IMG/VR virus record: IMGVR_UViG_3300001528_000621
Location: 96,001-160,000 of that record
DNA from: a virus
Taxonomy: Duplodnaviria > Caudoviricetes
Length of the DNA: 64,000 bases
Reading direction: 5' to 3' (one strand)
This document shows, piece by piece, positions 3 to 49,595 of this stretch. The translations under genes were made by a program, and so were the position numbers. The notes beneath the pieces are model-generated. The model ran no database searches, had not been told where the DNA came from, and worked only from the letters and a program-made list of their open reading frames with translations. Within the stretch, counting starts at the first letter, position 1. The number at the start of each line of letters is the position of its first letter.

Positions 3-470
3 GATCTCGATTTCATCAGAAAGCAGGACTTCATTACAGCTGTGCCGATTGAGATAGCACTTACGCTGAAAGATAGGGTTGAAGCTCTTTATTCTCATCC
101 AAATCTCAGATTTATTGTAACCGGTGTACCTGCTAGGAGAGTACCGAATCTCTACGATCTAGGATATACAGCTTTTGCACCTCTTACAGAAGGAGATCTC
201 ATCCGGATCGTTTCAGAGAACAGCAATGAAGAGAAACCTAAAGACTGTGAAAAGGAGGTTGTGCCCGAGGCAGACGAGAATGTGGGAGATGAAAACCTAA
301 TACCTAACAAGCCGGATGAGGACAATACAACTTCTATAGAGGAGAAGTACTACGTTAACGGTAGGGAAGTTGATAAGAAGCAATACAAGAACGCTGCTAA
401 GGAGTTCGAAAACGACCTTAAGGAGCTTTCTAGTGAGTGTGAACACCTATTCGGGTTTTTTGATTTTTAA
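3..470 (+). CDS. hypothetical acidic protein, 5' end probably outside the window
   Basis: Frame of ORF 42..470 stays open back to the window edge. Confidence 0.6.
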   Translation, partial: DLDFIRKQDFITAVPIEIALTLKDRVEALYSHPNLRFIVTGVPARRVPNLYDLGYTAFAPLTEGDLIRIVSENSNEEKPKDCEKEVVPEADENVGDENLIPNKPDEDNTTSIEEKYYVNGREVDKKQYKNAAKEFENDLKELSSECEHLFGFFDF

Positions 471-791
471 CCGGACCTAAACAAAGATAACACTTAACTA
501 TGAACGAGGAAAAGGTTGACGTTTCTGTCAGCCTTTCCTTATTTATTTTAGTTATGAATGATACAAGAAATAAAGTACTGAAGATGGTAATGAGGTGCAA
601 AAAGTACCGAAAACATAAACCTACTCCTGTACAGTTTCATGTTGTGCAGTTTGGAGGATTGGATGCACCTTTATTTCCGGAATCTGAAATAAAAGAAAAG
701 AGATTTAGTTCTACAGATACTCTTGAATTACGAAACGTTCTTAGGTCTATGGAATAAAAGCTAATTATTTTTGATACGAGAATAATAACAC

Positions 792-1445
792 ATGCTATAC
801 ACTTCAATGATTCTTCCTCTTCAGACAACCGCCGAGGGTCTCACATCAGAGCAAATTGGCAATGTTGTTGGACAGCTGTCTCAGTCTAGCATTGAGCTTG
901 CTGAAGCCGCAGCTAACTTTGGTGCACTCAAAGTAATTTTTGGTATTTTTTTGGTTTTTGCTCTCATAATGGTACTGTTGTTTGTGTACCAGATGTTAGC
1001 AACGACTCGAAAGGTTTCTAAAATCTACGATACGACTAATAAAGTTACCAGAATTTTAGAAGAAACATCGAATAGAACTTTAGGACGATCTCAATCGTCA
1101 ATTCTCATACGAAGAAGTTTTAATGAATTAGCTCAGTCTATTAAGTATACAATATTACGAACAAGACTAGAGAACCACTTAGATCAGAGAGAGTACGTTG
1201 TAAGCAAGGTAGAGAAACTAATCAATCACGAATATCAGGAACTTAATAGTTTCTTAATGAATTACGAATGTGATGATAGGTCTCTAGCTGTACACATAAA
1301 CACAGAGGATTCTAAAATCATTTCTGAATTTATATTAGAGCAGGTATATTTAGACAGCTCTATCTTTACCATAGCTAGCATGGACCAAGCAGCAGACATA
1401 CTTATAAAGGGTTTGCGGCTAGAAGCACTTAAAGGAATAGAATAG
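792..1445 (+). CDS. single-pass membrane protein
   Basis: 217 aa; hydrophobic segment VIFGIFLVFALIMVLLFVY followed by a soluble helical domain. Confidence 0.7.
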   Translation: MLYTSMILPLQTTAEGLTSEQIGNVVGQLSQSSIELAEAAANFGALKVIFGIFLVFALIMVLLFVYQMLATTRKVSKIYDTTNKVTRILEETSNRTLGRSQSSILIRRSFNELAQSIKYTILRTRLENHLDQREYVVSKVEKLINHEYQELNSFLMNYECDDRSLAVHINTEDSKIISEFILEQVYLDSSIFTIASMDQAADILIKGLRLEALKGIE

Positions 1446-1446
1446 G

Positions 1447-1722
1447 ATGAAAATTCAGGTCCGAGGATGTACATTTGATTCTGATACCGGTATTTGGTCT
1501 ATTTGGATGAATAAACCTAAAGGACTAAATGTAGAGGATAAAAAACTCTACAACCGGTTTAATCAAGAGTGCTATCTAAAGAACATAAAAAATAAGAAAG
1601 GAGTTGAAATGTTAGTGCTGAAAGGTAAATTTGTAGGTACTCAACTCAATTCGTTCTTGATAGTAATGAGAGAGGACCTAACAACATACATAAATAAATT
1701 AAAGAAAACTGGAACTAAATAG
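1447..1722 (+). CDS. hypothetical protein
   Basis: 91-aa ORF abutting the upstream gene and followed by a terminator-like hairpin. Confidence 0.6.
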   Translation: MKIQVRGCTFDSDTGIWSIWMNKPKGLNVEDKKLYNRFNQECYLKNIKNKKGVEMLVLKGKFVGTQLNSFLIVMREDLTTYINKLKKTGTK

Positions 1723-1773
1723 TTTCAGCTTTTTCTTTTAGTTTTAGCTTATTGAATCAAAACATATAAAGCT

Positions 1774-2751
1774 GTGGGAAAGAAAAAGAAAGGAAAATTT
1801 AAGAGTAATAGTGTCGAAAGTTTTTCTGTAGATTTGGTCGTACCGTTTGTAGATCCTTCAGACACTCAATGGCAAAAAGACCGAGAAGAGTGGGCAGAAA
1901 AATGTAAAGATCCTTCTCTGAATGAAGTTAGTTTGGCAGCTAATCAGGACTTCAGGTTTAGGGATTGGGGAATTTTTCCATACGTTTTCAGAAGCATTCA
2001 AGAGAACATACCTTGGATCAGAAAGATATTTTTAATCGTAGCTTCAGATACTCAGGTACCGGCTTGGCTAAATAGGGACACAGTTGAAATCGTTAAACAC
2101 TCTGACATTTTTGATGCAGATGAGCTTCCAGTCTTCTCTCCTACAATAATAGAAATGAAGTTAGGAAATATTAAAGGTCTTTCAGAGCACTTCATTTATG
2201 TGAACGACGATATGTTCTTTTTGAAGCCTTTGAAAAAGTCCGACTTCTTTACAGAGGGGGGGGGCCTACCAAAAATAGGGTTTGAAACATTCTCTGTGTT
2301 CGATGTAGAACACATTAACCCTTTCATTTACAATTACGGTTTTAGGCAAAAGTATTTATTCTCTGACGAATTTGATCTTAAAGGGGATAGGACTACGTAC
2401 GGGATTTATCACGGACCTCAACCAGTACTTAAGAGCGTAGTTAACTACATACAAAGGAAGTATGCTAAGGAGATAAAAGAAAATTCTTTTAGGTTTAGAA
2501 AAGCTGTTGACGACTATAATATTTACATCTACCATATCTACAGTATCTTATCTAAAAAATACGAAAAGGGACAATCAATAACTCAATACAGTTCCATTGA
2601 AAGCTTAGCAGACGTCCCAAAGACTGTGGAAGGAGACATGCTATGTATAAACGACTACATACAGTCAGAGGAAGAAGCTGGTCCTATTATTCAGCTTTGT
2701 CAATCAAGACTTGAATCTCTATTTCCTAACAAATCCAAATACGAATTATGA
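1774..2751 (+). CDS. Stealth-family hexose-1-phosphate transferase (capsular polysaccharide phosphotransferase-like)
   Basis: CR1 VDLVVPFVDPSD..W; CR2 RFRD..YVFRSI..PWIRKIFLIV..QVPAWLN..GLSEHFIYVNDDMFF; CR4 CIND..LESLFPNKSKYE. Confidence 0.9.
   Translation: MGKKKKGKFKSNSVESFSVDLVVPFVDPSDTQWQKDREEWAEKCKDPSLNEVSLAANQDFRFRDWGIFPYVFRSIQENIPWIRKIFLIVASDTQVPAWLNRDTVEIVKHSDIFDADELPVFSPTIIEMKLGNIKGLSEHFIYVNDDMFFLKPLKKSDFFTEGGGLPKIGFETFSVFDVEHINPFIYNYGFRQKYLFSDEFDLKGDRTTYGIYHGPQPVLKSVVNYIQRKYAKEIKENSFRFRKAVDDYNIYIYHIYSILSKKYEKGQSITQYSSIESLADVPKTVEGDMLCINDYIQSEEEAGPIIQLCQSRLESLFPNKSKYEL
2256..2264 (+). repeat. G9 homopolymer inside the Stealth gene
   Basis: acaga-GGGGGGGGG-cc, currently in frame (E-G-G-G). 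Confidence 0.95.
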
Positions 2752-3482
2752 TGGTAAATAATTTCAAAAAAGTAGAACCGTATCTTACAGAAAGAGAAGG
2801 TTTCTATTACGTCATAGACATCGTATGTAGGCTAAAGGACACAAACCTTAGATTGCCTGAAGAAATCTATGGAGGTGTGAGGGTTAGAAGAGTAAAGTAC
2901 TATCTTATTAAAAGTGTATCCGATCTAAAGAACATTGAACCCGAAATTAAGCTTCTTTGTAGAGCTTTAGGAGCAAGAGCGTACATAGGACTAGTACCTA
3001 TAAACATGACGACGTTACTTCAGAAAATTGGGTGTCAAAGTTTGATGTTGTCTCTACAAGAGAACTGGGAGCAAAGGTTTATTGACATAGAAGGACTAGA
3101 ACTTCTTAATTTCGGACTTTTTGATGTCGAGGAAGGAGAGACAGAGCATCCTAAATATTCTGGATCTGAAATCTTTTTTAATTCTCTAGATACCCAATGC
3201 AAGTACCTCACATTCGATATAGATCGCCCAGAACTATTAGACAATCTTACAAAAAATTTAGATATTTTAGGAATAGGAGTTTGTGAAGAGGTACCGTCTG
3301 TTTGGGGAAAAACTCTAATAGTAAAGTTACCAGAGGACTACACTGAATCAACTTTGAAGTTTGAACAGTGGTGGAATATCCGAACTTATTACAAACTAAA
3401 AGATGTGTATCCCGGGCCGCATAAGTGGGGACCAGTAAACCTTTATGTGCCGGGAAAAAGACTTATAAGTACTGCAGTGTAG
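2748..3482 (+). CDS. AEP (primase-polymerase)-like fold protein, paralog 1
   Basis: Paralog of 8990..9628 (VNNF..., EIKLLC..ARAY); LTFDID motif; motif II degenerate (PSVWGKT). Confidence 0.5.
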   Translation: MMVNNFKKVEPYLTEREGFYYVIDIVCRLKDTNLRLPEEIYGGVRVRRVKYYLIKSVSDLKNIEPEIKLLCRALGARAYIGLVPINMTTLLQKIGCQSLMLSLQENWEQRFIDIEGLELLNFGLFDVEEGETEHPKYSGSEIFFNSLDTQCKYLTFDIDRPELLDNLTKNLDILGIGVCEEVPSVWGKTLIVKLPEDYTESTLKFEQWWNIRTYYKLKDVYPGPHKWGPVNLYVPGKRLISTAV

Positions 3483-4231
3483 TGAGAGAAGCTATAAATA
3501 ATATTGAACAAGTAGCTAAATACTTGGAACCGGTAAAAGGCTGCAAGTACGCTGTGTTTACAGTATTGCGGCAAAAAGATTCAGGAATTCAATCTCAGTA
3601 CAATCTGGACCGTGCATGCTTTCCGGAGGATGATAATGTTTTTGGATCTATAGTTACAGCAGTGAACATATCTCTACGCAACGTGTGGGTTAAGGACGGA
3701 GAAGAGCTCCTCAAATACTCTGATGAGTTCGTATCTATTTGTGAATTTACCCGTAGCAGGCTTTACATTGTAGTGGAGCCAATATCAATTGAAAAGGTAA
3801 ATACAAACTTGCTCCAAAATATTTTACATTCGTTTTACAGTACGCCAGACAAGCTTTTACCAGAAGAAGTTCTACCTCGATATTTTTACTCTTTTTTCTC
3901 TTTACGTAAAAATGATATATGGATATCTGATGTAATTTGGAGAAAAAACGGATACACAACATTCGATGTAGACAACGTTGTAGGTAGGGGTATGCAAGAT
4001 GCTCAAAGAAATCTTAGATATCTTGAAAATCTTGGATATAGTTACGTAGACAGGTTTACTACTCCAAACGGGTTTCATATTTTGATGAAATCCCCTGTAC
4101 ACGGTAAGTTTACAGTAGAAGAAGAAGCAAGATGGTATAATCGTTACATTATGCCTCCGTTTTCTACTTTAGGTAATTATCTTGGAATTCATACAGATGG
4201 CTGCATTCTAGCATATGCTCCTCAACTTTAA
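3482..4231 (+). CDS. AEP-like fold protein, paralog 2
   Basis: GTG start overlapping the upstream TAG aligns with the paralog N-termini (REAINNIEQ vs REVNNFEQ); TFDVD and TTPNGFH motifs. Confidence 0.55.
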   Translation: MREAINNIEQVAKYLEPVKGCKYAVFTVLRQKDSGIQSQYNLDRACFPEDDNVFGSIVTAVNISLRNVWVKDGEELLKYSDEFVSICEFTRSRLYIVVEPISIEKVNTNLLQNILHSFYSTPDKLLPEEVLPRYFYSFFSLRKNDIWISDVIWRKNGYTTFDVDNVVGRGMQDAQRNLRYLENLGYSYVDRFTTPNGFHILMKSPVHGKFTVEEEARWYNRYIMPPFSTLGNYLGIHTDGCILAYAPQL

Positions 4232-4260
4232 TTTATATCTTTAGAGAAATAAAAAGAAAG

Positions 4261-4464
4261 ATGGGACTAGAGAAAGCAATAGCTTCTGGAAAAGAGCATA
4301 GAAAAGAGTATAAAGGAGCAAAGAGAGTTTCTCGTAGCTGTAGAAACAACGGGGGAGGACATAAACACTCGGAGTGCCCTTACTGTCAATCAAATCGAGA
4401 ACACAATAGTAGAGTTAAAGAAGAGAAAGCCAATTTTGATTTGTCAGAAAATATAGCTATTTAA
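4261..4464 (+). CDS. small basic Cys/His protein (conserved phage hypothetical)
   Basis: LEKAIASGKEHRK...SCRN...CPYC..NR; preceded by a TATCTTTAG promoter. Confidence 0.7.
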   Translation: MGLEKAIASGKEHRKEYKGAKRVSRSCRNNGGGHKHSECPYCQSNREHNSRVKEEKANFDLSENIAI

Positions 4465-4475
4465 CAAAACATACA

Positions 4476-4527
4476 TCAGCAGTTCTGTGACGTATTCCTG
4501 CTGACTAAAAATTAAAACATAAAGTCA
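4476..4527 (+). promoter_or_regulatory. candidate preQ1-I-like riboswitch / structured leader
   Basis: 7-bp stem UCAGCAG/CUGCUGA, loop UUC...UUC, A-rich tail; directly upstream of the porin and yhhQ genes. Confidence 0.4.
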
Positions 4528-5166
4528 ATGAAAAAAATTCTTATTTTAGTGACAGCTCTTCTGCTGTCCATCGGTGCATCCGCACAAACAGATCTTCATT
4601 ATCTTCCAGTTACATTTTCTACGAACGGAACAAGTACGGTTGGAAAGGTATTTACAGCTTTAACTCTCCCTACAGAAAATACCGTAACCTATGTGGAGGT
4701 TCTTAAAACTGTTCAGGATCCAGACTATTACATTCAATTCTTTCACGAACAGAAGTTTTGGGAAGCTCCAATTTACGTGCATGCTGAGTTCCGAGACCAG
4801 AGCTGGTCTGGGTATGGAGAGACAATGCTTATGGTTGGAGGAGCTTTTGACGTCTTTACAAAGAATGGAATGATTGCTTTTGAACCTCTTTTGAGAATAG
4901 ATGGTGAAAAAAGAGATTGGGGTCATTTTCAGCCAATGTTTTCTGTCGTTACGGGACACGATTGGGGTAAATTTAATCTAAATTCATTTTCAGACTTCTG
5001 GTATGATTCAAACTACCTGAATAACGGATTTAATTGGTACTCTGAAGCTTGGGCTTATTTCAAAGTTTGGGAACACTTTCAATTAGGAGCTGTATTTTCT
5101 GCAAGCTATAACGAAAGCGTTAAGTTTTCTGCATCGGTAGCACCAGGATTAAAGATTATATTCTAA
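4528..5166 (+). CDS. outer-membrane beta-barrel, DUF5020/Tsx-like nucleoside channel
   Basis: Signal peptide MKKILILVTALLLSIGASAQ, then Q..LHY, HEQKFWEAPIYVHAEF, FSDFW, alternating aromatic strands and a C-terminal Phe. Confidence 0.65.
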   Translation: MKKILILVTALLLSIGASAQTDLHYLPVTFSTNGTSTVGKVFTALTLPTENTVTYVEVLKTVQDPDYYIQFFHEQKFWEAPIYVHAEFRDQSWSGYGETMLMVGGAFDVFTKNGMIAFEPLLRIDGEKRDWGHFQPMFSVVTGHDWGKFNLNSFSDFWYDSNYLNNGFNWYSEAWAYFKVWEHFQLGAVFSASYNESVKFSASVAPGLKIIF

Positions 5167-5186
5167 TTGTAAAGGATATTTGAAAT

Positions 5187-5915
5187 ATGGGATTTTTGAT
5201 GAGTAACGAGGCTTTGTTCCTTATCCAGCTTATTGTCTCTTTTGCAGGGGTAATATTTGCGTATAAATTTTTCGGAAAGACAGGACTTTTTGTATGGGCA
5301 GGACTAATAACTGTTTATGCTAATCTAGAAGTTAATTCTTTCTTGACAATGTTCGGTCTAGCTGTTAGTCTAGGAAATATTGGATTTTGTAGTCTAAGTT
5401 TTGCTCAAGACATTACGAATGAACAGTACGGTAAAGATGTAGCAAAAAAACTGGTAACGGTAGGACTATTTTCCTCTATTGCAATCCTGGTTGTAAGCCA
5501 GCTTAGTTGTTTCTTCAAATGCGATGGAGGTAACTATGAAGCATTTGAGAGTGTATTTGCAGCATTACTCCCGATACTGGTTTCTAGCTTAACATCATAC
5601 TTCTGCTCTAATAGGTTAAATGTATTTTTGTATAATTGGATTAGACAAAGAACAGATAAAGACTGGATAAAAACTCAAGTTAGTTCTCAGACAGCACAGC
5701 TTTTTGATACAGTGTTCTTTACGTCTCTTTGTGTAGGTTGGGAAATTTTAGCAACAAAGACAGGAGCTGGATTTCTTCATACGTATTTTCCAACAGACTT
5801 TGGAACGTTTGTAGAACTTATTGTAACTTCATATATCATTAAAGCTATAATTGTTCTAGCTGAGATTCCAGGAATGTACTTTATGAGAAAAGTTGGAGCA
5901 CCGAAAGAAGTTTAG
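5187..5915 (+). CDS. yhhQ: queuosine precursor (preQ0/preQ1) transporter, YhhQ/Vut_1 family
   Basis: About 6 TM helices; FGKTGL..W, ANLEV, LGN, DITNEQYGK..AKK.V..G, S..AQLFDTVFF. Confidence 0.85.
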   Translation: MGFLMSNEALFLIQLIVSFAGVIFAYKFFGKTGLFVWAGLITVYANLEVNSFLTMFGLAVSLGNIGFCSLSFAQDITNEQYGKDVAKKLVTVGLFSSIAILVVSQLSCFFKCDGGNYEAFESVFAALLPILVSSLTSYFCSNRLNVFLYNWIRQRTDKDWIKTQVSSQTAQLFDTVFFTSLCVGWEILATKTGAGFLHTYFPTDFGTFVELIVTSYIIKAIIVLAEIPGMYFMRKVGAPKEV

Positions 5916-5966
5916 TCTTTAAAGTTCAATAGAAATTTTTATCTTTAGCTTAGAAATAGAAAAGAT

Positions 5967-6224
5967 ATGAAAAACATACTTTCACTGCCAGATATTCCAT
6001 TCTACAGAAGTACATGCCCGTTTTGCGGCTGTGAATTTGAATATACAGCAGACGAGGCAGATTACTTGGAGTATGACGGTTATGTAGTTGTTTGTCCACA
6101 TTGCTTTAAGACTTTGCGTGTTGAGGATCCAAAACTACAAACACCGTGGAGACACGAACATCCGGAAAGGCCTGGTACATCAAATTTACCTGGGACAGTA
6201 AACATATGGAACAAAGAGTGCTAA
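5967..6224 (+). CDS. small zinc-ribbon protein
   Basis: CPFC...CPHC; has its own TATCTTTAG promoter at 5940. Confidence 0.65.
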   Translation: MKNILSLPDIPFYRSTCPFCGCEFEYTADEADYLEYDGYVVVCPHCFKTLRVEDPKLQTPWRHEHPERPGTSNLPGTVNIWNKEC

Positions 6225-6895
6225 TAACGGGAACATCCCAGGGTATCGGTCTTGCTACAGCTAAAAGGTTTCTAGAAAGATCAGGTACTTTCGTTTTTGG
6301 CTTTGACAAACAACCTTGTCCGGAAGAGCTGGAGGGTCATAAGAGGTACACTCACTTTAATATTTCTGTAACAGATATTGAAGAGTTTGTTATTCTCGAT
6401 AAACTAGATTATGTTATCTGTAATGCAGGTATTCAGACAGCCCCAGAAGCTGGTAATGTAATGATGACAAACTTTTGGGGAGTTGATAACATAATCAGAA
6501 TGTATGCTCTTCAATCTTGCTGCAAAGGCATTGTCATTGTAGGTTCAGTCTCAGGCATAACAGGAGCAGAGTTTGATGAGTATGTAGCAAGTAAAGGAGC
6601 TCTTATACCGTACACAAAAGCTATAGCTAATAAAGTAGCTCAGTGGGGAGGAGTTTGCAACTGCATTGCACCTGGAGGAGTAATGACAGAACTCAATGAA
6701 CCGGTAATGGACAATCCAAAGCTCTGGGATAGAATAATGAACCTGACACCTCTCAAACGTTGGGCAGAACCTTCAGAGATAGCAGATTGGATTTATTTTC
6801 TAGCTACTCAAAGGTTCTGTACAGGACAGACTATTATCGTTGATGGAGGAGAATCAATCAAATCTAACTTTGTTTGGCCTTCATTAGAGTTTTAA
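6206..6895 (+). CDS. short-chain dehydrogenase/reductase (SDR)
   Basis: TGTSQGIG Rossmann motif, NAG, catalytic S..YVASK, PGGV.T, TGQ.I.VDGG; start moved to the ATG at 6206. Confidence 0.92.
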   Translation: MEQRVLITGTSQGIGLATAKRFLERSGTFVFGFDKQPCPEELEGHKRYTHFNISVTDIEEFVILDKLDYVICNAGIQTAPEAGNVMMTNFWGVDNIIRMYALQSCCKGIVIVGSVSGITGAEFDEYVASKGALIPYTKAIANKVAQWGGVCNCIAPGGVMTELNEPVMDNPKLWDRIMNLTPLKRWAEPSEIADWIYFLATQRFCTGQTIIVDGGESIKSNFVWPSLEF

Positions 6896-6914
6896 GGAGA
6901 ACGTAGGATGCTTT

Positions 6915-6976
6915 AAGGGACCTTTAATTCAAATGTCTTCATAAAGAAAGATATAAATTAAAGGTCCTTTTCTTTT
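6915..6976 (+). terminator. long hairpin plus U-tract
   Basis: AAGGGACCTTTAATT...AATTAAAGGTCCTT followed by TTCTTTT. Confidence 0.7.
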
Positions 6977-7034
6977 GCTCCTTCAAAAATAATAACTATC
7001 TTTAGCTTAGAAATTAAAAACAAATAAACAGCAT

Positions 7035-8042
7035 ATGCAATATTCTCTGGATGAGTACACCTTAATTCCCAAAAGGATATCTAAAATTAGTTCTAGAAGA
7101 GATGTTCAGGTTCTTGACGATAATGGGAAGCTTCCTGTGTTTGTAGCTCCTATGACTTGTATTTTAGACAGAAACAATTTTAGTACTTTCAATAAATCTC
7201 CTTTCATTCCGGTTTATCCGGTCTGGGCTGGTGAAAATCTTGCTTCAAGACAAGTAGTACCGGGTTGGGTAGCTGTTACTCTTAAGGAGTTTGAAGAGCA
7301 ATTTGTACCTGATGAAGGGTGGTTGAGGGACCGTAAACCTCACAAAATCTTGATAGACTGTGCAAACGGTCATATGGAAAAGATTTATGATTTAGTTAGG
7401 AAAGCTAAAGCTCGCCCGGGCAACGCAGGGTTGGAAGTAATGGTAGGTAATATAGCTAACCCAGAGACATACAAAGATTGCTGCATGGCCGGAATAGACT
7501 ATGTTAGAGTAGGTATTGGAGGAGGTTCTGGATGCACAACCTCTGTTCAGACAGGTTTTCATGCTGGGATGGGATGGCTTTTAACTGAAATAGAGTATTA
7601 CAGAAGAGATATTAAGAATAACTGGAAGTTTCAAGAACCGATGACAATTACAAAGGTTGTTGCTGATGGGGGAATTAACACTATCTCAAAAGCTGTAAAA
7701 GCCCTAGCTCTGGGTGCTGACTATGTGATGATGGGTAAAATCTTTGCTCAATGTGAAGAAGCTTGTGCATTGAAAATTTCAGAGGAACAACCCTTCAGAC
7801 AGTACTACGGACAGGCGTCAGAGCAGGGACAAATAGATAGGTTTGGAGAAGTGAGGAATAACCCGGAAGGTCTAGAAACTCTCGTACACATAGAACATAC
7901 TTTGGATTCCCTTGCAACTAAGTTTAAGGATGTACTAGCCAGTGCGTGTTCGTACGCTGGAGCTTCAAACTTAAAAGAATTTATTGGACAGGTGAGGTGG
8001 GACGTTATTTCAAAATCAGAATTTAATTCGTTTAACAAATAG
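7035..8042 (+). CDS. GMP reductase / IMP dehydrogenase family (no CBS domains)
   Basis: APM, ID.ANGH, MVGNIA, VRVGIGGGSGCTT, ADGGI, ALALGADYVMMG, SYAGA. Confidence 0.9.
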   Translation: MQYSLDEYTLIPKRISKISSRRDVQVLDDNGKLPVFVAPMTCILDRNNFSTFNKSPFIPVYPVWAGENLASRQVVPGWVAVTLKEFEEQFVPDEGWLRDRKPHKILIDCANGHMEKIYDLVRKAKARPGNAGLEVMVGNIANPETYKDCCMAGIDYVRVGIGGGSGCTTSVQTGFHAGMGWLLTEIEYYRRDIKNNWKFQEPMTITKVVADGGINTISKAVKALALGADYVMMGKIFAQCEEACALKISEEQPFRQYYGQASEQGQIDRFGEVRNNPEGLETLVHIEHTLDSLATKFKDVLASACSYAGASNLKEFIGQVRWDVISKSEFNSFNK

Positions 8043-8820: not shown

Positions 8821-8997
8821 ATGGAAGAGATTAAAGCAACTGAAATAATGGAAGCGTACAACAAGAGGTATGCACCGGAAACAGTCACACTGGAAGAGGT
8901 GAAAGACTATTTGAATACCCACGCATTTTTTAATTTGCACCCAGATGTTGCAGCGGCAATTATGCACCAGACCCTAAAGAAGAATAAAGATGATTAG
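8821..8997 (+). CDS. small hypothetical protein (58 aa, not in the ORF track)
   Basis: MEEIKATEIMEAY...KKNKDD*; A-rich leader; overlaps the start of the next gene. Confidence 0.6.
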   Translation: MEEIKATEIMEAYNKRYAPETVTLEEVKDYLNTHAFFNLHPDVAAAIMHQTLKKNKDD

Positions 8998-9628
8998 AGA
9001 AGTAAACAACTTTGAACAAATAAAGAATTTTATAAAGTTTGACACCGACGACCAATTTTACTTTGTTCAAATTCTCCAGAGAAAGAAAGACGGTCTAGCA
9101 GCAGACGGTTCTATTGTCTCCGGTACAAACAATAAATCAAGAGCAATTAAAAGTTACTGCGTTACGAGTCGTGAATATCTTGAACAGCACGAATTTGAAA
9201 TTAAGCAGCTGTGTCGTCTCTTTAATGCAAGAGCTTATTTTTCTCCGGCAAGAAAGTCCTTTAAACAGGTTGCGTTGGCTAACCTTGTTAACTTGTCTAA
9301 ACATATAGCGGATGAAAACTTTTCTCACGCTAAAACGGATTACTGGGGTGCTTGCGGACAGTCTGGAATAGAAAAGCTTTATCTTGTAGACATCGATGAA
9401 AATCACAATAATCTTACAGACCTATATAAAATTGAAGGGGATTTACAGCAAGTCGTACGTTCTGAAGTTCCGGGATTTGAAAGAATAGTTCTAACGATAC
9501 CTACAGTCCACGGAAAGCACTTTATATGCAAACCGTTCGACGTAAATGCTTTCAAGCAGATGTGGCCGGACATCGACGTTCATAGAAACAACCCTACCCT
9601 GCTTTATAAAGCCGCTACTGAAGAATAA
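8990..9628 (+). CDS. AEP-like fold protein, paralog 3 (intact motifs)
   Basis: YLVDID (motif I), IPTVHGKH (motif II), later D; FYFVQILQRKKD N-terminal motif. Confidence 0.6.
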   Translation: MIREVNNFEQIKNFIKFDTDDQFYFVQILQRKKDGLAADGSIVSGTNNKSRAIKSYCVTSREYLEQHEFEIKQLCRLFNARAYFSPARKSFKQVALANLVNLSKHIADENFSHAKTDYWGACGQSGIEKLYLVDIDENHNNLTDLYKIEGDLQQVVRSEVPGFERIVLTIPTVHGKHFICKPFDVNAFKQMWPDIDVHRNNPTLLYKAATEE

Positions 9629-48073: not shown

Positions 48074-49152
48074 TGAGTACGATAACAGATTGTGCATATT
48101 GGAGATATTTAGGGGAGAATGATGTACCCAAAGTAGAAGGTTCAATCAAACACATTGATCCTTCTCAACTCGACGAAGGAGTAGTTCCTCTAACAGAAGA
48201 AGAGTACGAATCAGGTTCTAAATCTACACCTAAGGTTTTGACAAGATCTCAGAAAGGTCAAGCCCTTACTCACCTTGAGATGGATTTTAACCTTGCTTCT
48301 CTTTTTCATAAACTTAATACATCTAGTGTATCTAGTTCTTTCTCAGAGGATGAGTACAGTGAGGACAATGATGTCTATTTTGAGAGACGTAAGCCTACTC
48401 GAGAGGAAGAAAAAGCAGGGTTGTTTGCTACATTTTCCTATGCTCCTATAACAAATGATGGACGAACCCTTATTCAGAATGGATTCCAGACTATTAAAGT
48501 ACAACATACTACCGATGAAATAAGGTATAAGCTTTCTAATGAGAGAATTCCGGGAACTTTAGATATTGAAGAAGACTTTAGGGTCACGGGGAGTGCGTTT
48601 GTAGGAAATAACCTATACGTTACAGGAAATCTTGACGTACAGAATGACACCGGTACCAGGACCTTAAATGTAGAGCAATCTGCTAGCATTGAACAGACTC
48701 TTCGAGTAAAGGGCACAGCTTCCTTTGATAGGGATCTTACCGTAGAAGGAAACCTCTACGTTAAGGGTTTAATTTTTGGCGATCTTTCTCAGAAAGGCTA
48801 TAATAGTCTTGAAAATCCAGGATATGCTGCTAAGTATACCAGGTTTGGAACTCAAGATACAGGAAGCCAGTCTGATTTTAGATTAAAGAAAGATTGTCGG
48901 GAGATTGAGAATGCTCTTGAAGCTGTAGAGCATATATCGGGTTACAGGTTTGAATGGGATTCTAAAGCTGAAAAATCTGGATCAGATATTGGTGTCATTG
49001 CACAGGAAGTTAAGCCTTACGTTCCTGAAGCTGTTTCAACTGGGGAAGATGGCTATTTAAGGGTGGATTACGTAAAACTAATTCCTATTCTTATTAACGC
49101 TATTCACGAATTACGATGTCAAGTAACAGAGCTTCAGCAAAAACAGAAGTAG
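48073..49152 (+). CDS. tail fibre/spike with an intramolecular chaperone (peptidase S74) domain
   Basis: N-terminal R..KG..LT..EMD.N; beta repeats; SDFRLK...G..F.W...GVIAQEV...V.Y.KL.P.LI.AI.EL. Confidence 0.85.
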   Translation: MSTITDCAYWRYLGENDVPKVEGSIKHIDPSQLDEGVVPLTEEEYESGSKSTPKVLTRSQKGQALTHLEMDFNLASLFHKLNTSSVSSSFSEDEYSEDNDVYFERRKPTREEEKAGLFATFSYAPITNDGRTLIQNGFQTIKVQHTTDEIRYKLSNERIPGTLDIEEDFRVTGSAFVGNNLYVTGNLDVQNDTGTRTLNVEQSASIEQTLRVKGTASFDRDLTVEGNLYVKGLIFGDLSQKGYNSLENPGYAAKYTRFGTQDTGSQSDFRLKKDCREIENALEAVEHISGYRFEWDSKAEKSGSDIGVIAQEVKPYVPEAVSTGEDGYLRVDYVKLIPILINAIHELRCQVTELQQKQK

Positions 49153-49595
49153 AACCTTGGGTATATCAAGGGCGTCCCATGGGGAGACTTGAAGACTTTC
49201 CTGAAGGAACATATGGATTCATTTATGAAATTACCTATAAGGAGACCAATCAAAAGTATATCGGCAAAAAACAACTTTTAAGCTATCACAAAAAACCTAC
49301 TAAAATATTTAATGAAAAAACAAAGCGTTGGAACAAATCTTGGGAAATTCTTACGACAGAGTCTAATTGGCAAGATTATTTTGGAAGTAACAGAGAAATC
49401 GTAGACCTAGTAAAGAAAGAAGGAAAAGATAAGTTTAAAAGAGAAATAATTTACCTATGTCCAGATAAAAAATTGCTCACATTCTACGAACTAGCATTTC
49501 AATGTAAGAGAGACGTATTAACAGATCCAGATTACATAAACAGTAATATTTTAGGAAAGTTTTTTAGATCTGATTGGAAAAAAGAGTCTGAATAA
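49116..49595 (+). CDS. GIY-YIG nuclease, T4 endonuclease II-like
   Basis: YGFIYEIT...KYIGKK, ESNWQDYFGS, FKREI..LC, Y.N.NI.G. Confidence 0.8.
   Translation: MSSNRASAKTEVEPWVYQGRPMGRLEDFPEGTYGFIYEITYKETNQKYIGKKQLLSYHKKPTKIFNEKTKRWNKSWEILTTESNWQDYFGSNREIVDLVKKEGKDKFKREIIYLCPDKKLLTFYELAFQCKRDVLTDPDYINSNILGKFFRSDWKKESE

Follow-up and report, generated by a model that had tools for sequence, protein, structure and literature searches.

A candidate queuosine-precursor salvage operon with a pseudoknot leader RNA in a large gut phage and in Bacteroidales

On balance, positions 4475–6974 of the window, a 64,000-nt stretch of DNA from a gut phage, are best read as a self-contained queuosine-precursor salvage operon common to Bacteroidales gut bacteria, which the phage has probably acquired from a Bacteroidales-type host. 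Queuosine is a micronutrient-like tRNA modification for which gut microbes and their hosts compete, and the precursor source of preQ1-auxotrophic gut anaerobes is partly known. The operon couples a leader RNA to an outer-membrane barrel, an inner-membrane transporter of the Vut_1/YhhQ family and an SDR dehydrogenase, and is carried by a complete phage genome of 188 kb (DTR, CheckV 100%).

RESULTS

A conserved unit of one leader RNA and three genes

A sequence-only reading of the DNA had placed five genes in a single import and conversion cluster. All five ORFs were confirmed with their coordinates (Table 1), yet they are not a single unit, the zinc-ribbon and GMP-reductase-like genes falling outside it. 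The conserved unit consists of the leader RNA, a DUF5020-type barrel, Vut_1/YhhQ and a classical NAD-type SDR, and was found in five phage or phage-like contigs and eight Bacteroidales genomes. The flanks of the unit are unrelated among the eight Bacteroidales genomes and phages L002, L007 and L265, and at the DNA level the cluster gave no match to GenBank phages. This recurrence upholds the proposal that barrel, YhhQ and SDR are one conserved uptake unit linked to queuosine-precursor salvage. The 3' end of the unit is a stable hairpin (–28.9 kcal/mol, z –5.1) that none of 200 shuffles matched in folding; in Rfam, hairpin-type models matched it only below their thresholds. A simple terminator scan overlooked this hairpin, which was revealed by folding.

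Table 1. Features of the locus, in window positions.
Feature	Positions	Strand	Basis
Leader RNA, H-type pseudoknot	4475–4530	+	Covariation, covariance model
Outer-membrane 12-strand β-barrel, divergent DUF5020 member, 212 aa	4528–5166	+	Homologs, structure model
Inner-membrane Vut_1/YhhQ (COG1738), putative queuosine-precursor transporter, 242 aa	5187–5915	+	PF02592, TIGR00697
Small CxxC zinc-ribbon protein, 85 aa	5967–6224	+	CxxC pairs, weak zinc-ribbon matches only
Classical SDR dehydrogenase, 229 aa from ATG 6206	6206–6895	+	Profile, motifs
Hairpin followed by a U run; terminator-like, end of unit	6915–6974	+	Folding
Divergent GMP-reductase/IMPDH-family enzyme, 335 aa	7035–8042	+	Fold/profile match

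Components of the predicted uptake route

The barrel protein carries the signal peptide MKKILILVTALLLSIGASAQ and its C-terminal end reads ...GLKIIF, with a terminal F. No Pfam model matched it at E ≤ 10, PF16412 included, while 17 of its 31 HMMER homologs match DUF5020 (PF16412) with a best E of 3e-12. The AlphaFold model, of moderate confidence (pLDDT 69.5), contains 12 strands, and its top fold matches were all outer-membrane barrels, the best being E. coli Tsx (PDB 1tlw) with a TM-score of 0.66. Tsx is likewise a monomeric 12-strand barrel of similar size; however, the phage protein has no sequence similarity to it (10% identity) and is placed by its homologs in DUF5020 of Bacteroidota. The barrel gene adjoins Vut_1 in L002, L003, L004–L011, L022 and L265, and by analogy the barrel could plausibly hand a nucleobase-like solute to the inner-membrane carrier.

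The transporter scored 95.1 bits against PF02592 (E 7e-27; cut-off 27.2) and 115.7 bits against TIGR00697, 'queuosine precursor transporter' (cut-off 50.95). It thus shares its Pfam family with E. coli YhhQ/QPTR (COG1738), an experimentally shown importer of preQ0 and preQ1 that is known downstream of preQ1 riboswitches (PMC5372724), and like YhhQ/QPTR it occurs in genomes that need queuosine-precursor salvage. Putative transport of preQ0, preQ1 or queuine is read from this context. Unlike the known YhhQ/QPTR, the importer described here forms a fixed unit together with a barrel of the outer membrane, an SDR dedicated to it and an RNA that would regulate in cis. YhhQ homologs have already been reported in phages (Hutinet et al. 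2019, PMC6884629); neither that paper nor PMC5372724 mentions the barrel or the SDR as partners of the importer. DpdA was not found in the present phage.

The SDR reading frame spans 6146–6895, within which translation probably begins at the ATG at 6206. The protein retains TGxxxGIG, Asp34 (NAD type), NNAG, Ser114/116 and Tyr126-x3-Lys130. It belongs to a large subfamily, and among 83 of its members at least 95% keep each of the family hallmarks (PF00106/PF13561: TGxxxGxG, NNAG, Ser and Tyr-x3-Lys). Cys151 and Cys205 are almost invariant, and the closest relatives of known structure are generic enzymes of the FabG-like type. Among the 80 best species loci the SDR gene adjoins Vut_1 in 76 and lies within 1 kb of it in 77, the two are also neighbours in a further five of five neighbourhoods, and the pairing of SDR with a YhhQ importer extends to about 500 species genomes. 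From sequence and neighbourhood, the SDR can be taken as an uncharacterised enzyme dedicated to Vut_1, in keeping with the sequence-only reading, which had suggested an uncharacterised salvage or tailoring enzyme. A constant association of the SDR with the DUF5020 barrel was also considered; a Bacteroidales sample agreed (8/8 versus 0/7), but in the wider survey the barrel was present at 0 of the 80 best SDR loci and the idea was rejected.

A covarying H-type pseudoknot precedes the unit

The leader RNA was absent from the sequence-only reading. Its P1 helix, of 7 bp (UCAGCAG/CUGCUGA), encloses a loop of 15 nt, UUCUGUGACGUAUUC, and an A-rich linker lies 3' of P1. P2 is a 4-bp pseudoknot in which UGAC of the loop pairs with a GUCA located 4 nt upstream of the AUG of the barrel gene, so that the pairing lies over the ribosome-binding region. 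Across a set of 21 distinct copies, together with those of L007, L265 and L266, both helices covary. Four P2 haplotypes were present, each fully complementary (GCCU/GGGC, GCUU/GAGC, CUCU/GGAG and UGAC/GUCA), and out of the 24 ways of pairing the four loop with the four tail sequences only the one observed is fully complementary throughout. P1 occurs in 13 haplotypes, with at least six contiguous pairs in every copy except one, where one internal pair is mismatched. A covariance model, R1, recovered three copies that had been left out of its building (E 2e-5 to 8e-5). Two loose DNA-pattern scans returned mostly chance matches and, after filtering, at least about 12 new true copies. At 10 further loci the leader precedes Vut_1 alone, and two Vut_1 subtypes were found downstream of it.

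The leader resembles the preQ1-I riboswitch (RF00522) in several respects. Both are H-type pseudoknots with P2 over the ribosome-binding region; the P1 loop begins UUC(U) and ends in a C directly before the 3' strand, the 3' tail is A-rich, and the gene downstream of the RNA is of the yhhQ family, in genomes auxotrophic for preQ1. However, P1 is 7 bp compared with about 5 in preQ1-I, 5–6 nt separate P1 from P2 where preQ1-I has about 2, and the A-rich linker measures some 18–22 nt against 6–7. At E ≤ 10 no Rfam family, preQ1 models included, matched the leader in a 121-nt search of the phage sequence, and the bacterial leader loci gave the same result. Rfam applied to 17 Firmicutes Vut_1–SDR loci likewise identified no preQ1 riboswitch and no other relevant family. 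Given the genes regulated and the queuosine-pathway make-up of the carrier genomes, the ligand is most likely preQ1.

Carrier genomes retain TGT and QueA and lack QueC and QueF

The base inserted into tRNA by bacterial TGT is preQ1. Queuosine-pathway genes were examined in 66 genomes carrying the leader (16) or the SDR (50), most of them incomplete MAGs; TGT was present in 60 and QueA in 63, no genome had QueC, and at most one had QueF, by a marginal match. Within the leader set, 15 of 16 genomes encode TGT and all 16 QueA, with no true QueC and no QueF, and the SDR set, which covers several phyla, gave 45 genomes with TGT, 47 with QueA, none with QueC and the single marginal QueF. With TGT and QueA present and QueC and QueF missing, the carrier genomes are therefore preQ1 auxotrophs, a pattern that ties the SDR homologs to queuosine salvage as had been proposed. 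QueC was found in 13 of 81 genomes of the whole bacterial family, in which it is commonly lacking, and shared ancestry may account for part of the correlation.

The phage encodes four G34 tRNAs and no detectable transglycosylase

The phage encodes 31 tRNAs, including those for Tyr, Asn, Asp and His with GUN anticodons (G34). These four read 17.5% of all phage codons, and 55–67% of the codons concerned are NAU. The sequence-only reading had offered a different motive, modification of the phage DNA with 7-deazaguanines, and an operon that feeds such modification through a very divergent transglycosylase or a host enzyme has some precedent, since there are phage DpdA systems that draw their precursors from the host or by import, and YhhQ is encoded by certain phages (PMC6884629). 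Phage L266, in which two Vut_1 genes and the SDR lie together with a formyltransferase and an amidase, is also compatible with it. Four kinds of search nevertheless identified no DpdA or TGT: the Pfam TGT model on six frames of the complete genome; the 9g DpdA, one bacterial TGT and a profile built from two sequences, each compared with every frame without filtering; the Dpd models of PADLOC, which gave no DpdA on 42 ORFs of intermediate size; and Pfam on the same 42 ORFs, where TGT was not among the matches listed (25 of 33 families). The complete genome also contains none of the preQ0 synthesis genes QueC, QueD, FolE and QueE, and no phosphoribosyltransferase, deoxyribosyltransferase or PurA that would carry a base to the nucleotide level. 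For its precursor, the phage combines missing synthesis genes with an encoded import route. The lack of a transglycosylase elsewhere in the genome is among the outcomes that the sequence-only reading had itself named as refuting its proposal. An 'EndoII-like nuclease' cited as support for modified DNA proved to be a Seg-type homing endonuclease, the ORF at 49116–49595 matching the SegE GIY-YIG family (E 1e-25). Given the lack of DpdA/TGT, of preQ0 synthesis and of transferases, together with the four G34 tRNAs, tRNA queuosine salvage is the best reading, and a role in DNA modification is unlikely.

The radical-SAM genes of the phage were considered as QueE or a QueL-like lyase and rejected, since profiles identified the two large ones as twitch-domain proteins and the third as NrdG.

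Less probable still is that the unit imports another compound, such as a pterin, another vitamin or an ordinary purine, on which the SDR would act in the manner of pteridine reductases. The Vut_1 family, labelled 'putative vitamin uptake', is broad, with substrates that differ between subgroups (PMC5372724), and the FabG-like relatives of the SDR are generic. Against this, the transporter exceeds the TIGR00697 equivalog cut-off, carriers across several phyla share the pattern of TGT and QueA without QueC and QueF, and the leader is built like preQ1-I in its P1, the C before the 3' strand, the A-rich tail and the pseudoknot over the ribosome-binding site.

The zinc-ribbon and GMP-reductase-like genes lie outside the unit

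In phage L265 a homolog of the zinc-ribbon gene (E 1.5e-10) immediately precedes the SDR. No other phage shares the gene, and it was not found in the bacterial operons; in L002 its position is taken by an unrelated small ORF that resembles window positions 4261–4464. The gene is a phage-only accessory, probably dispensable for the unit, and the earlier assignment to the pathway was not sustained.

The product of 7035–8042 has the IMPDH/GMP-reductase fold (E 6e-38), and among solved structures its best relative is a GMP reductase, 1ypf. Like GuaC (1ypf, PRK05458) it has a TIM-barrel fold and a GxGxGSxCTT-type loop, and it keeps the catalytic Cys-x-Thr and the later Glu-Gly, GIGGGSGCTTS aligning with GIGPGKVCITK of 1ypf and NPEG with NVEG. 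Unlike GuaC, it falls in a phage-wide divergent clade (PHROG 9582, 'dehydrogenase'); its score against PRK05458 was 120.7 bits, below the 344-bit equivalog cut-off, and it reached the cut-off of no other GMPR or IMPDH equivalog. The family exceeds 3000 members in unrelated phage contexts, occurring in crAss-like phages, Lak phages, Bacillus phage G, Thermus phages and other large phage contigs, and in three neighbourhoods examined no Vut_1 lay beside its relatives. In the sister phage L002 the gene is located 3 kb upstream of the unit with four genes between. With the terminator-like hairpin separating it from the SDR, the gene is a neighbour and not a unit member.

Deamination of a 7-deaza-GMP analogue by such an enzyme is performed by ToyE and TubD in toyocamycin and tubercidin synthesis. 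A toyocamycin-type nucleotide conversion (ToyH/ToyE/ToyG-like) was rejected given that PRTase, PurA and deoxyribosyltransferase are lacking and the GMP-reductase-like gene is independent and widespread. A purine or deazapurine import-and-conversion pathway of all five genes, with the GMP-reductase-like enzyme deaminating such an analogue, would suit the retained Cys and Thr and the position of the gene, 140 nt 3' of the SDR here and, in L002, less than 4 kb from the unit, but is very improbable in view of the intervening hairpin, the absence of the gene from every bacterial version of the unit, the wide distribution of its family away from Vut_1, and the lack of enzymes (phosphoribosyltransferase, adenylosuccinate synthetase, deoxyribosyltransferase) to make or use a deaza-nucleotide.

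DISCUSSION

In the proposed mechanism of queuosine-precursor salvage, the DUF5020 barrel would pass a 7-deazaguanine-type base through the outer membrane and YhhQ/Vut_1 would move it over the inner membrane. The cytoplasmic NAD-type SDR would then turn the imported compound into preQ1, preferably by oxidation of a queuine-type precursor with release of preQ1 or, alternatively, by reduction of preQ0. When ligand, most likely preQ1, is ample, the leader pseudoknot would cover the ribosome-binding region and switch translation off. During infection the operon may boost preQ1 in a host unable to make it, allowing host TGT to modify G34 in tRNAs of the host as well as in the phage tRNAs for Tyr, Asn, Asp and His. 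The operon thus most likely serves tRNA modification of both host and phage. One point counts against this mechanism: preQ1 imported as such would need no enzyme, and the role of the SDR would then be unexplained.

Queuine salvage in Clostridioides difficile, as reportedly described by Yuan et al. in 2019, uses a QueK hydrolase, the QueT/QrtT transporter and QueL, a radical-SAM queuine lyase. The present unit would likewise combine a transporter with a cytoplasmic enzyme to give preQ1 in TGT- and QueA-positive bacteria lacking QueC or QueF; however, its transporter belongs to another family, and an NAD-type SDR stands in place of the radical-SAM lyase.

The locus points to three undescribed parts of queuosine-precursor supply, namely an outer-membrane channel, a YhhQ-bound dehydrogenase and an RNA missed by current riboswitch models, with the whole regulated unit carried by large phages. 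It is possible, if somewhat short of probable, that all of the following hold together: that the SDR is a new queuosine-salvage enzyme, that the barrel is the first dedicated outer-membrane channel for queuosine precursors, that the leader represents a new class of preQ1-type riboswitch, and that phages have taken over the whole system. If so, hundreds of gut species without QueC/QueF would use the SDR to derive preQ1 from a precursor that they import, through NAD-dependent queuine oxidation followed by preQ1 release or through QueF-independent preQ0 reduction, and phages would use the regulated system to control the tRNA-modification state of the infected cell. Found with four queuosine-family tRNAs and without a DNA transglycosylase, the unit would exemplify viral investment in the supply of host tRNA modification rather than in DNA protection.

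Membrane proteins and composition of the uptake unit

The parent virus record (187,848 bp), of which the window covers 96001-160000, has direct terminal repeats and a completeness rating of 100%; the GC content of the DNA is about 37%, the + strand carries almost every gene and 31 tRNA genes are present in the genome. The sequence-only reading had taken five ORFs between 4528 and 8042 as one cluster for 7-deazaguanine/purine import and conversion, and all five were confirmed in their places. The two-membrane uptake route that it proposed, consisting of a barrel and a Vut_1/YhhQ transporter, is real and linked to queuosine salvage, as is the SDR, a dedicated partner of the transporter. To the phage YhhQ genes and riboswitch-controlled yhhQ already known, this locus adds a barrel and an SDR as partners and an unrecognised leader RNA, all carried together by phages lacking DpdA.

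Features of the uptake unit and neighbouring genes in the window
Feature	Position	Strand	Description
Leader RNA	4475-4530		upstream of barrel gene
DUF5020/Tsx-like barrel (predicted)	4528-5166	+	212 aa; typical signal peptide; C-terminal GLKIIF
Vut_1/YhhQ transporter	5187-5915	+	above NCBI cut-off for 'queuosine precursor transporter'
Small CxxC (zinc-ribbon) protein	5967-6224	+	85 aa
SDR	6146-6895	+	classical SDR; real start probably ATG at 6206
Long hairpin and U run	6915-6974		after SDR stop codon; folding -28.9 kcal/mol, z -5.1
GMP-reductase-like gene	7035-8042	+	divergent IMPDH/GMP-reductase-family protein; catalytic Cys and Thr kept
SegE-type GIY-YIG homing endonuclease	49116-49595		family match

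The barrel protein itself matched no Pfam, NCBIfam or PHROG model. An exhaustive HMMER search returned 35 relatives, and 17 of the 31 aligned relatives match DUF5020. The AlphaFold model (pLDDT 69.5) has 12 strands, with fold matches to outer-membrane barrels only, the best being the nucleoside channel Tsx (TM-score 0.66). Transitive homology and the modelled fold together support the label DUF5020/Tsx-like barrel.

Gene order was compared across phage and bacterial relatives. The barrel, Vut_1, a small ORF and the SDR are consecutive in a 162-kb sister phage contig (L002), where the GMP-reductase-like gene lies 3 kb upstream of the unit with four genes intervening, while a distant copy (L003) has the barrel and Vut_1 side by side. 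A third phage contig of 179 kb (L265) carries Vut_1, barrel, a zinc-ribbon homolog and the SDR (77% identity), and in a phage-like stretch (L007) a DNA ligase gene adjoins barrel, Vut_1 and SDR. The closest barrels within eight Bacteroidales genomes (35–43% identity) are each followed by a 249-aa Vut_1 gene and then an SDR (45–48% identity to the phage SDR), within flanks that are unrelated and differ from locus to locus. Given these conserved orders and the hairpin past the SDR, the unit consists of the leader, barrel, Vut_1 and SDR. The five genes do not form one pathway. Insertion of the zinc-ribbon gene is occasional and seen in phages, and the GMP-reductase-like gene is a neighbour only.

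The small ORF of L002 is unrelated to the zinc-ribbon gene of the window and resembles window 4261-4464 instead. Both this stretch and L002:9487-9687 encode a Cys-rich protein of 66–67 aa (MGLEKxIxSGKEHRK...CPYC), located just upstream of the leader in the window and between Vut_1 and the SDR in L002; this small phage gene seems to be mobile.

A conserved leader RNA precedes the transporter genes

The element upstream of the barrel gene in the phage recurs, conserved, in related phages and in the bacterial operons; the bacterial copies stand downstream of a Bacteroidetes-type TAnnTTTG box. A 7-bp hairpin (P1) closes a loop of 15–16 nt that starts UUCU(A/G) and ends (C/U)AUC or AUUC, and an A-rich stretch, AUAAAUUAAAACAUAAAG, lies 3' of P1. 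Four nucleotides overlapping the last G of this stretch, 4–12 nt before the AUG, pair with loop positions -10 to -7 to form a pseudoknot helix (P2). Among 21 distinct leader copies P1 has 13 haplotypes, with at least six contiguous pairs in 20 copies and a single internal mismatch in the remaining one (L213). P2 occurs as four haplotypes (GCCU/GGGC, GCUU/GAGC, CUCU/GGAG and UGAC/GUCA), each fully complementary, and of the 24 ways in which the four loop haplotypes could be matched with the four tail haplotypes, the observed one alone is fully complementary.

A covariance model trained on these 21 copies detected the leader in L265, L266 (a 166-kb phage contig) and L007, all left out of model building, at E-values of 2e-5 to 8e-5; L007 has a fifth P2 haplotype, GGAC/AUCC, with three pairs. 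The leader has the same build as the preQ1-I riboswitch, but with longer joining segments, and no Rfam family matched it at E≤10. It precedes either barrel–Vut_1–SDR or Vut_1 alone, with two Vut_1 subtypes found behind it.

The SDR is a dedicated partner of Vut_1

The SDR subfamily numbers 2771 relatives at E≤1e-30 and is present in 510 of the species genomes scanned. Within the 80 best loci, a same-strand Vut_1 gene directly adjoins the SDR in 76 and is no more than 1 kb away in 77, with one further locus ending at a contig end; the pair recurs in five of five additional metagenome neighbourhoods. No published description of this pairing was found in the literature. Neither barrel nor leader occurs at any of these 80 loci, which marks both as additions, made in Bacteroidales and phages, to a more widespread Vut_1–SDR pair.

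Members of the subfamily retain the complete SDR catalytic set, along with two nearly invariant cysteines and many aromatic residues. Their strand 2 ends in an Asp, as is typical for enzymes that use NAD and not NADP. Because a carrier importing preQ1 itself would need no enzyme, we infer that the SDR converts an imported compound to preQ1. An NAD-type SDR could oxidise the ring hydroxyl of queuine, yielding a beta-amino ketone able to release preQ1. Alternatively, the SDR may be a preQ0 reductase, which would fit the universal lack of QueF equally well.

Carrier genomes lack QueC and QueF

The 16 genomes with the leader encode TGT in 15 cases and QueA in 16, with no QueF and no QueC (weak PP-loop matches of 22–27 bits only). 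Fifty genomes with the SDR, drawn from Bacteroidales, several Clostridia families, Erysipelotrichaceae and Kiritimatiellae, gave 45 with TGT, 47 with QueA, none with QueC and one marginal QueF. The presence of TGT and QueA without QueC and QueF was taken as preQ1 salvage by Zallot et al. 2017 (PMC5372724), who also reported yhhQ behind preQ1 riboswitches. The absence of QueC is to be read with caution, given that this gene occurs in 13 of 81 genomes of the Bacteroidales family concerned and most lack it anyway. Most Bacteroidales carriers of the leader or SDR (G001-G015 and about 13 of G247-G296) have two QueA-family genes, one of ~350 aa and a second of ~410 aa (~320 bits).

Neighbouring genes

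Relatives of the GMP-reductase-like gene number more than 3000 at E≤1e-10, and many of them show ~50% identity and lie on contigs of 70–190 kb. Three sampled neighbourhoods held helicases, GroEL and small early genes, with no Vut_1 beside the relatives. GenBank phages with the gene include a crAss-like phage, Lak megaphages, Bacillus phage G, Thermus phages and jumbo Xanthomonas phages. The simplest view is that the product is an enzyme of general use in phage nucleotide pools; by turning GMP into IMP it would serve a genome rich in AT. In a 141-kb IMG/VR contig (L001:5352-7836) the gene is in two pieces ~1.5 kb apart (residues 1–167 and 167–335), as if an intron or homing endonuclease had inserted between the halves.

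Paralogous PHROG 14949 proteins (window 3425-4231 and 8990-9628) flank the cluster, one on each side. Window 1774-2751 encodes a 325-aa protein with the CR2 and CR4 regions of Stealth, a family of hexose-1-phosphoryltransferases with a known part in making capsules. Elsewhere the genome encodes a GDP-mannose-dehydratase/epimerase-type enzyme and a family-7 glycosyltransferase, and the phage may thus glycosylate some target. Outside the window, G000:C1:8632-10963 of the phage genome encodes two adjoining twitch-domain radical-SAM proteins (NF033640; 315 and 460 aa), possibly the two ORFs matched by PADLOC viperin-type models in a set of 42 mid-size ORFs.

Purpose of the unit in the phage

The earlier suggestion that import serves 7-deazaguanine modification of phage DNA found no support in this genome. 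An EndoII-like nuclease had been cited as a sign of modified DNA; this ORF matches SegE-type homing endonucleases and lends no support. A transglycosylase was sought elsewhere in the genome and none was found: the Pfam TGT model detected all 14 control genomes and nothing in six frames of the phage genome, and phmmer searches with phage 9g DpdA, a bacterial TGT and a two-sequence profile against every open frame, with filters off, returned noise only. Across the 42 mid-size ORFs, the six PADLOC families matched include no Dpd family, and TGT is not among the 25 Pfam families listed of 33 matched. The genome also lacks the preQ0 synthesis genes QueC, QueD and FolE, its radical-SAM genes being the two twitch-domain proteins and NrdG. 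DNA modification nevertheless keeps some weight, as phages that may depend on imported precursors were noted by Hutinet et al. 2019 (PMC6884629), and in L266 the Vut_1–SDR pair is accompanied by a formyltransferase and an amidase. The L266 genes (109-4675) run in the order formyltransferase, leader, Vut_1, amidase-signature enzyme, second Vut_1 (preceded by a shorter hairpin that resembles preQ1-I) and SDR, and may form a larger cluster for the processing of deazaguanines.

No phosphoribosyltransferase, nucleoside deoxyribosyltransferase or adenylosuccinate synthetase was found in the phage genome. By contrast, the substrates on which bacterial TGT acts, tRNA-Tyr(GUA), Asn(GUU), Asp(GUC) and His(GUG), are all encoded by the phage. 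The codons read by these four tRNAs make up 17.5% of phage codons with an NAU share of 55–67%, the share being 38–50% in bacterial loci with the unit. Given four tRNA substrates and no genes for transglycosylation, synthesis or base-to-nucleotide conversion, the best-supported purpose of the unit is therefore to supply more preQ1 for queuosine in host and phage tRNAs. The leader would tie expression of the unit to need.
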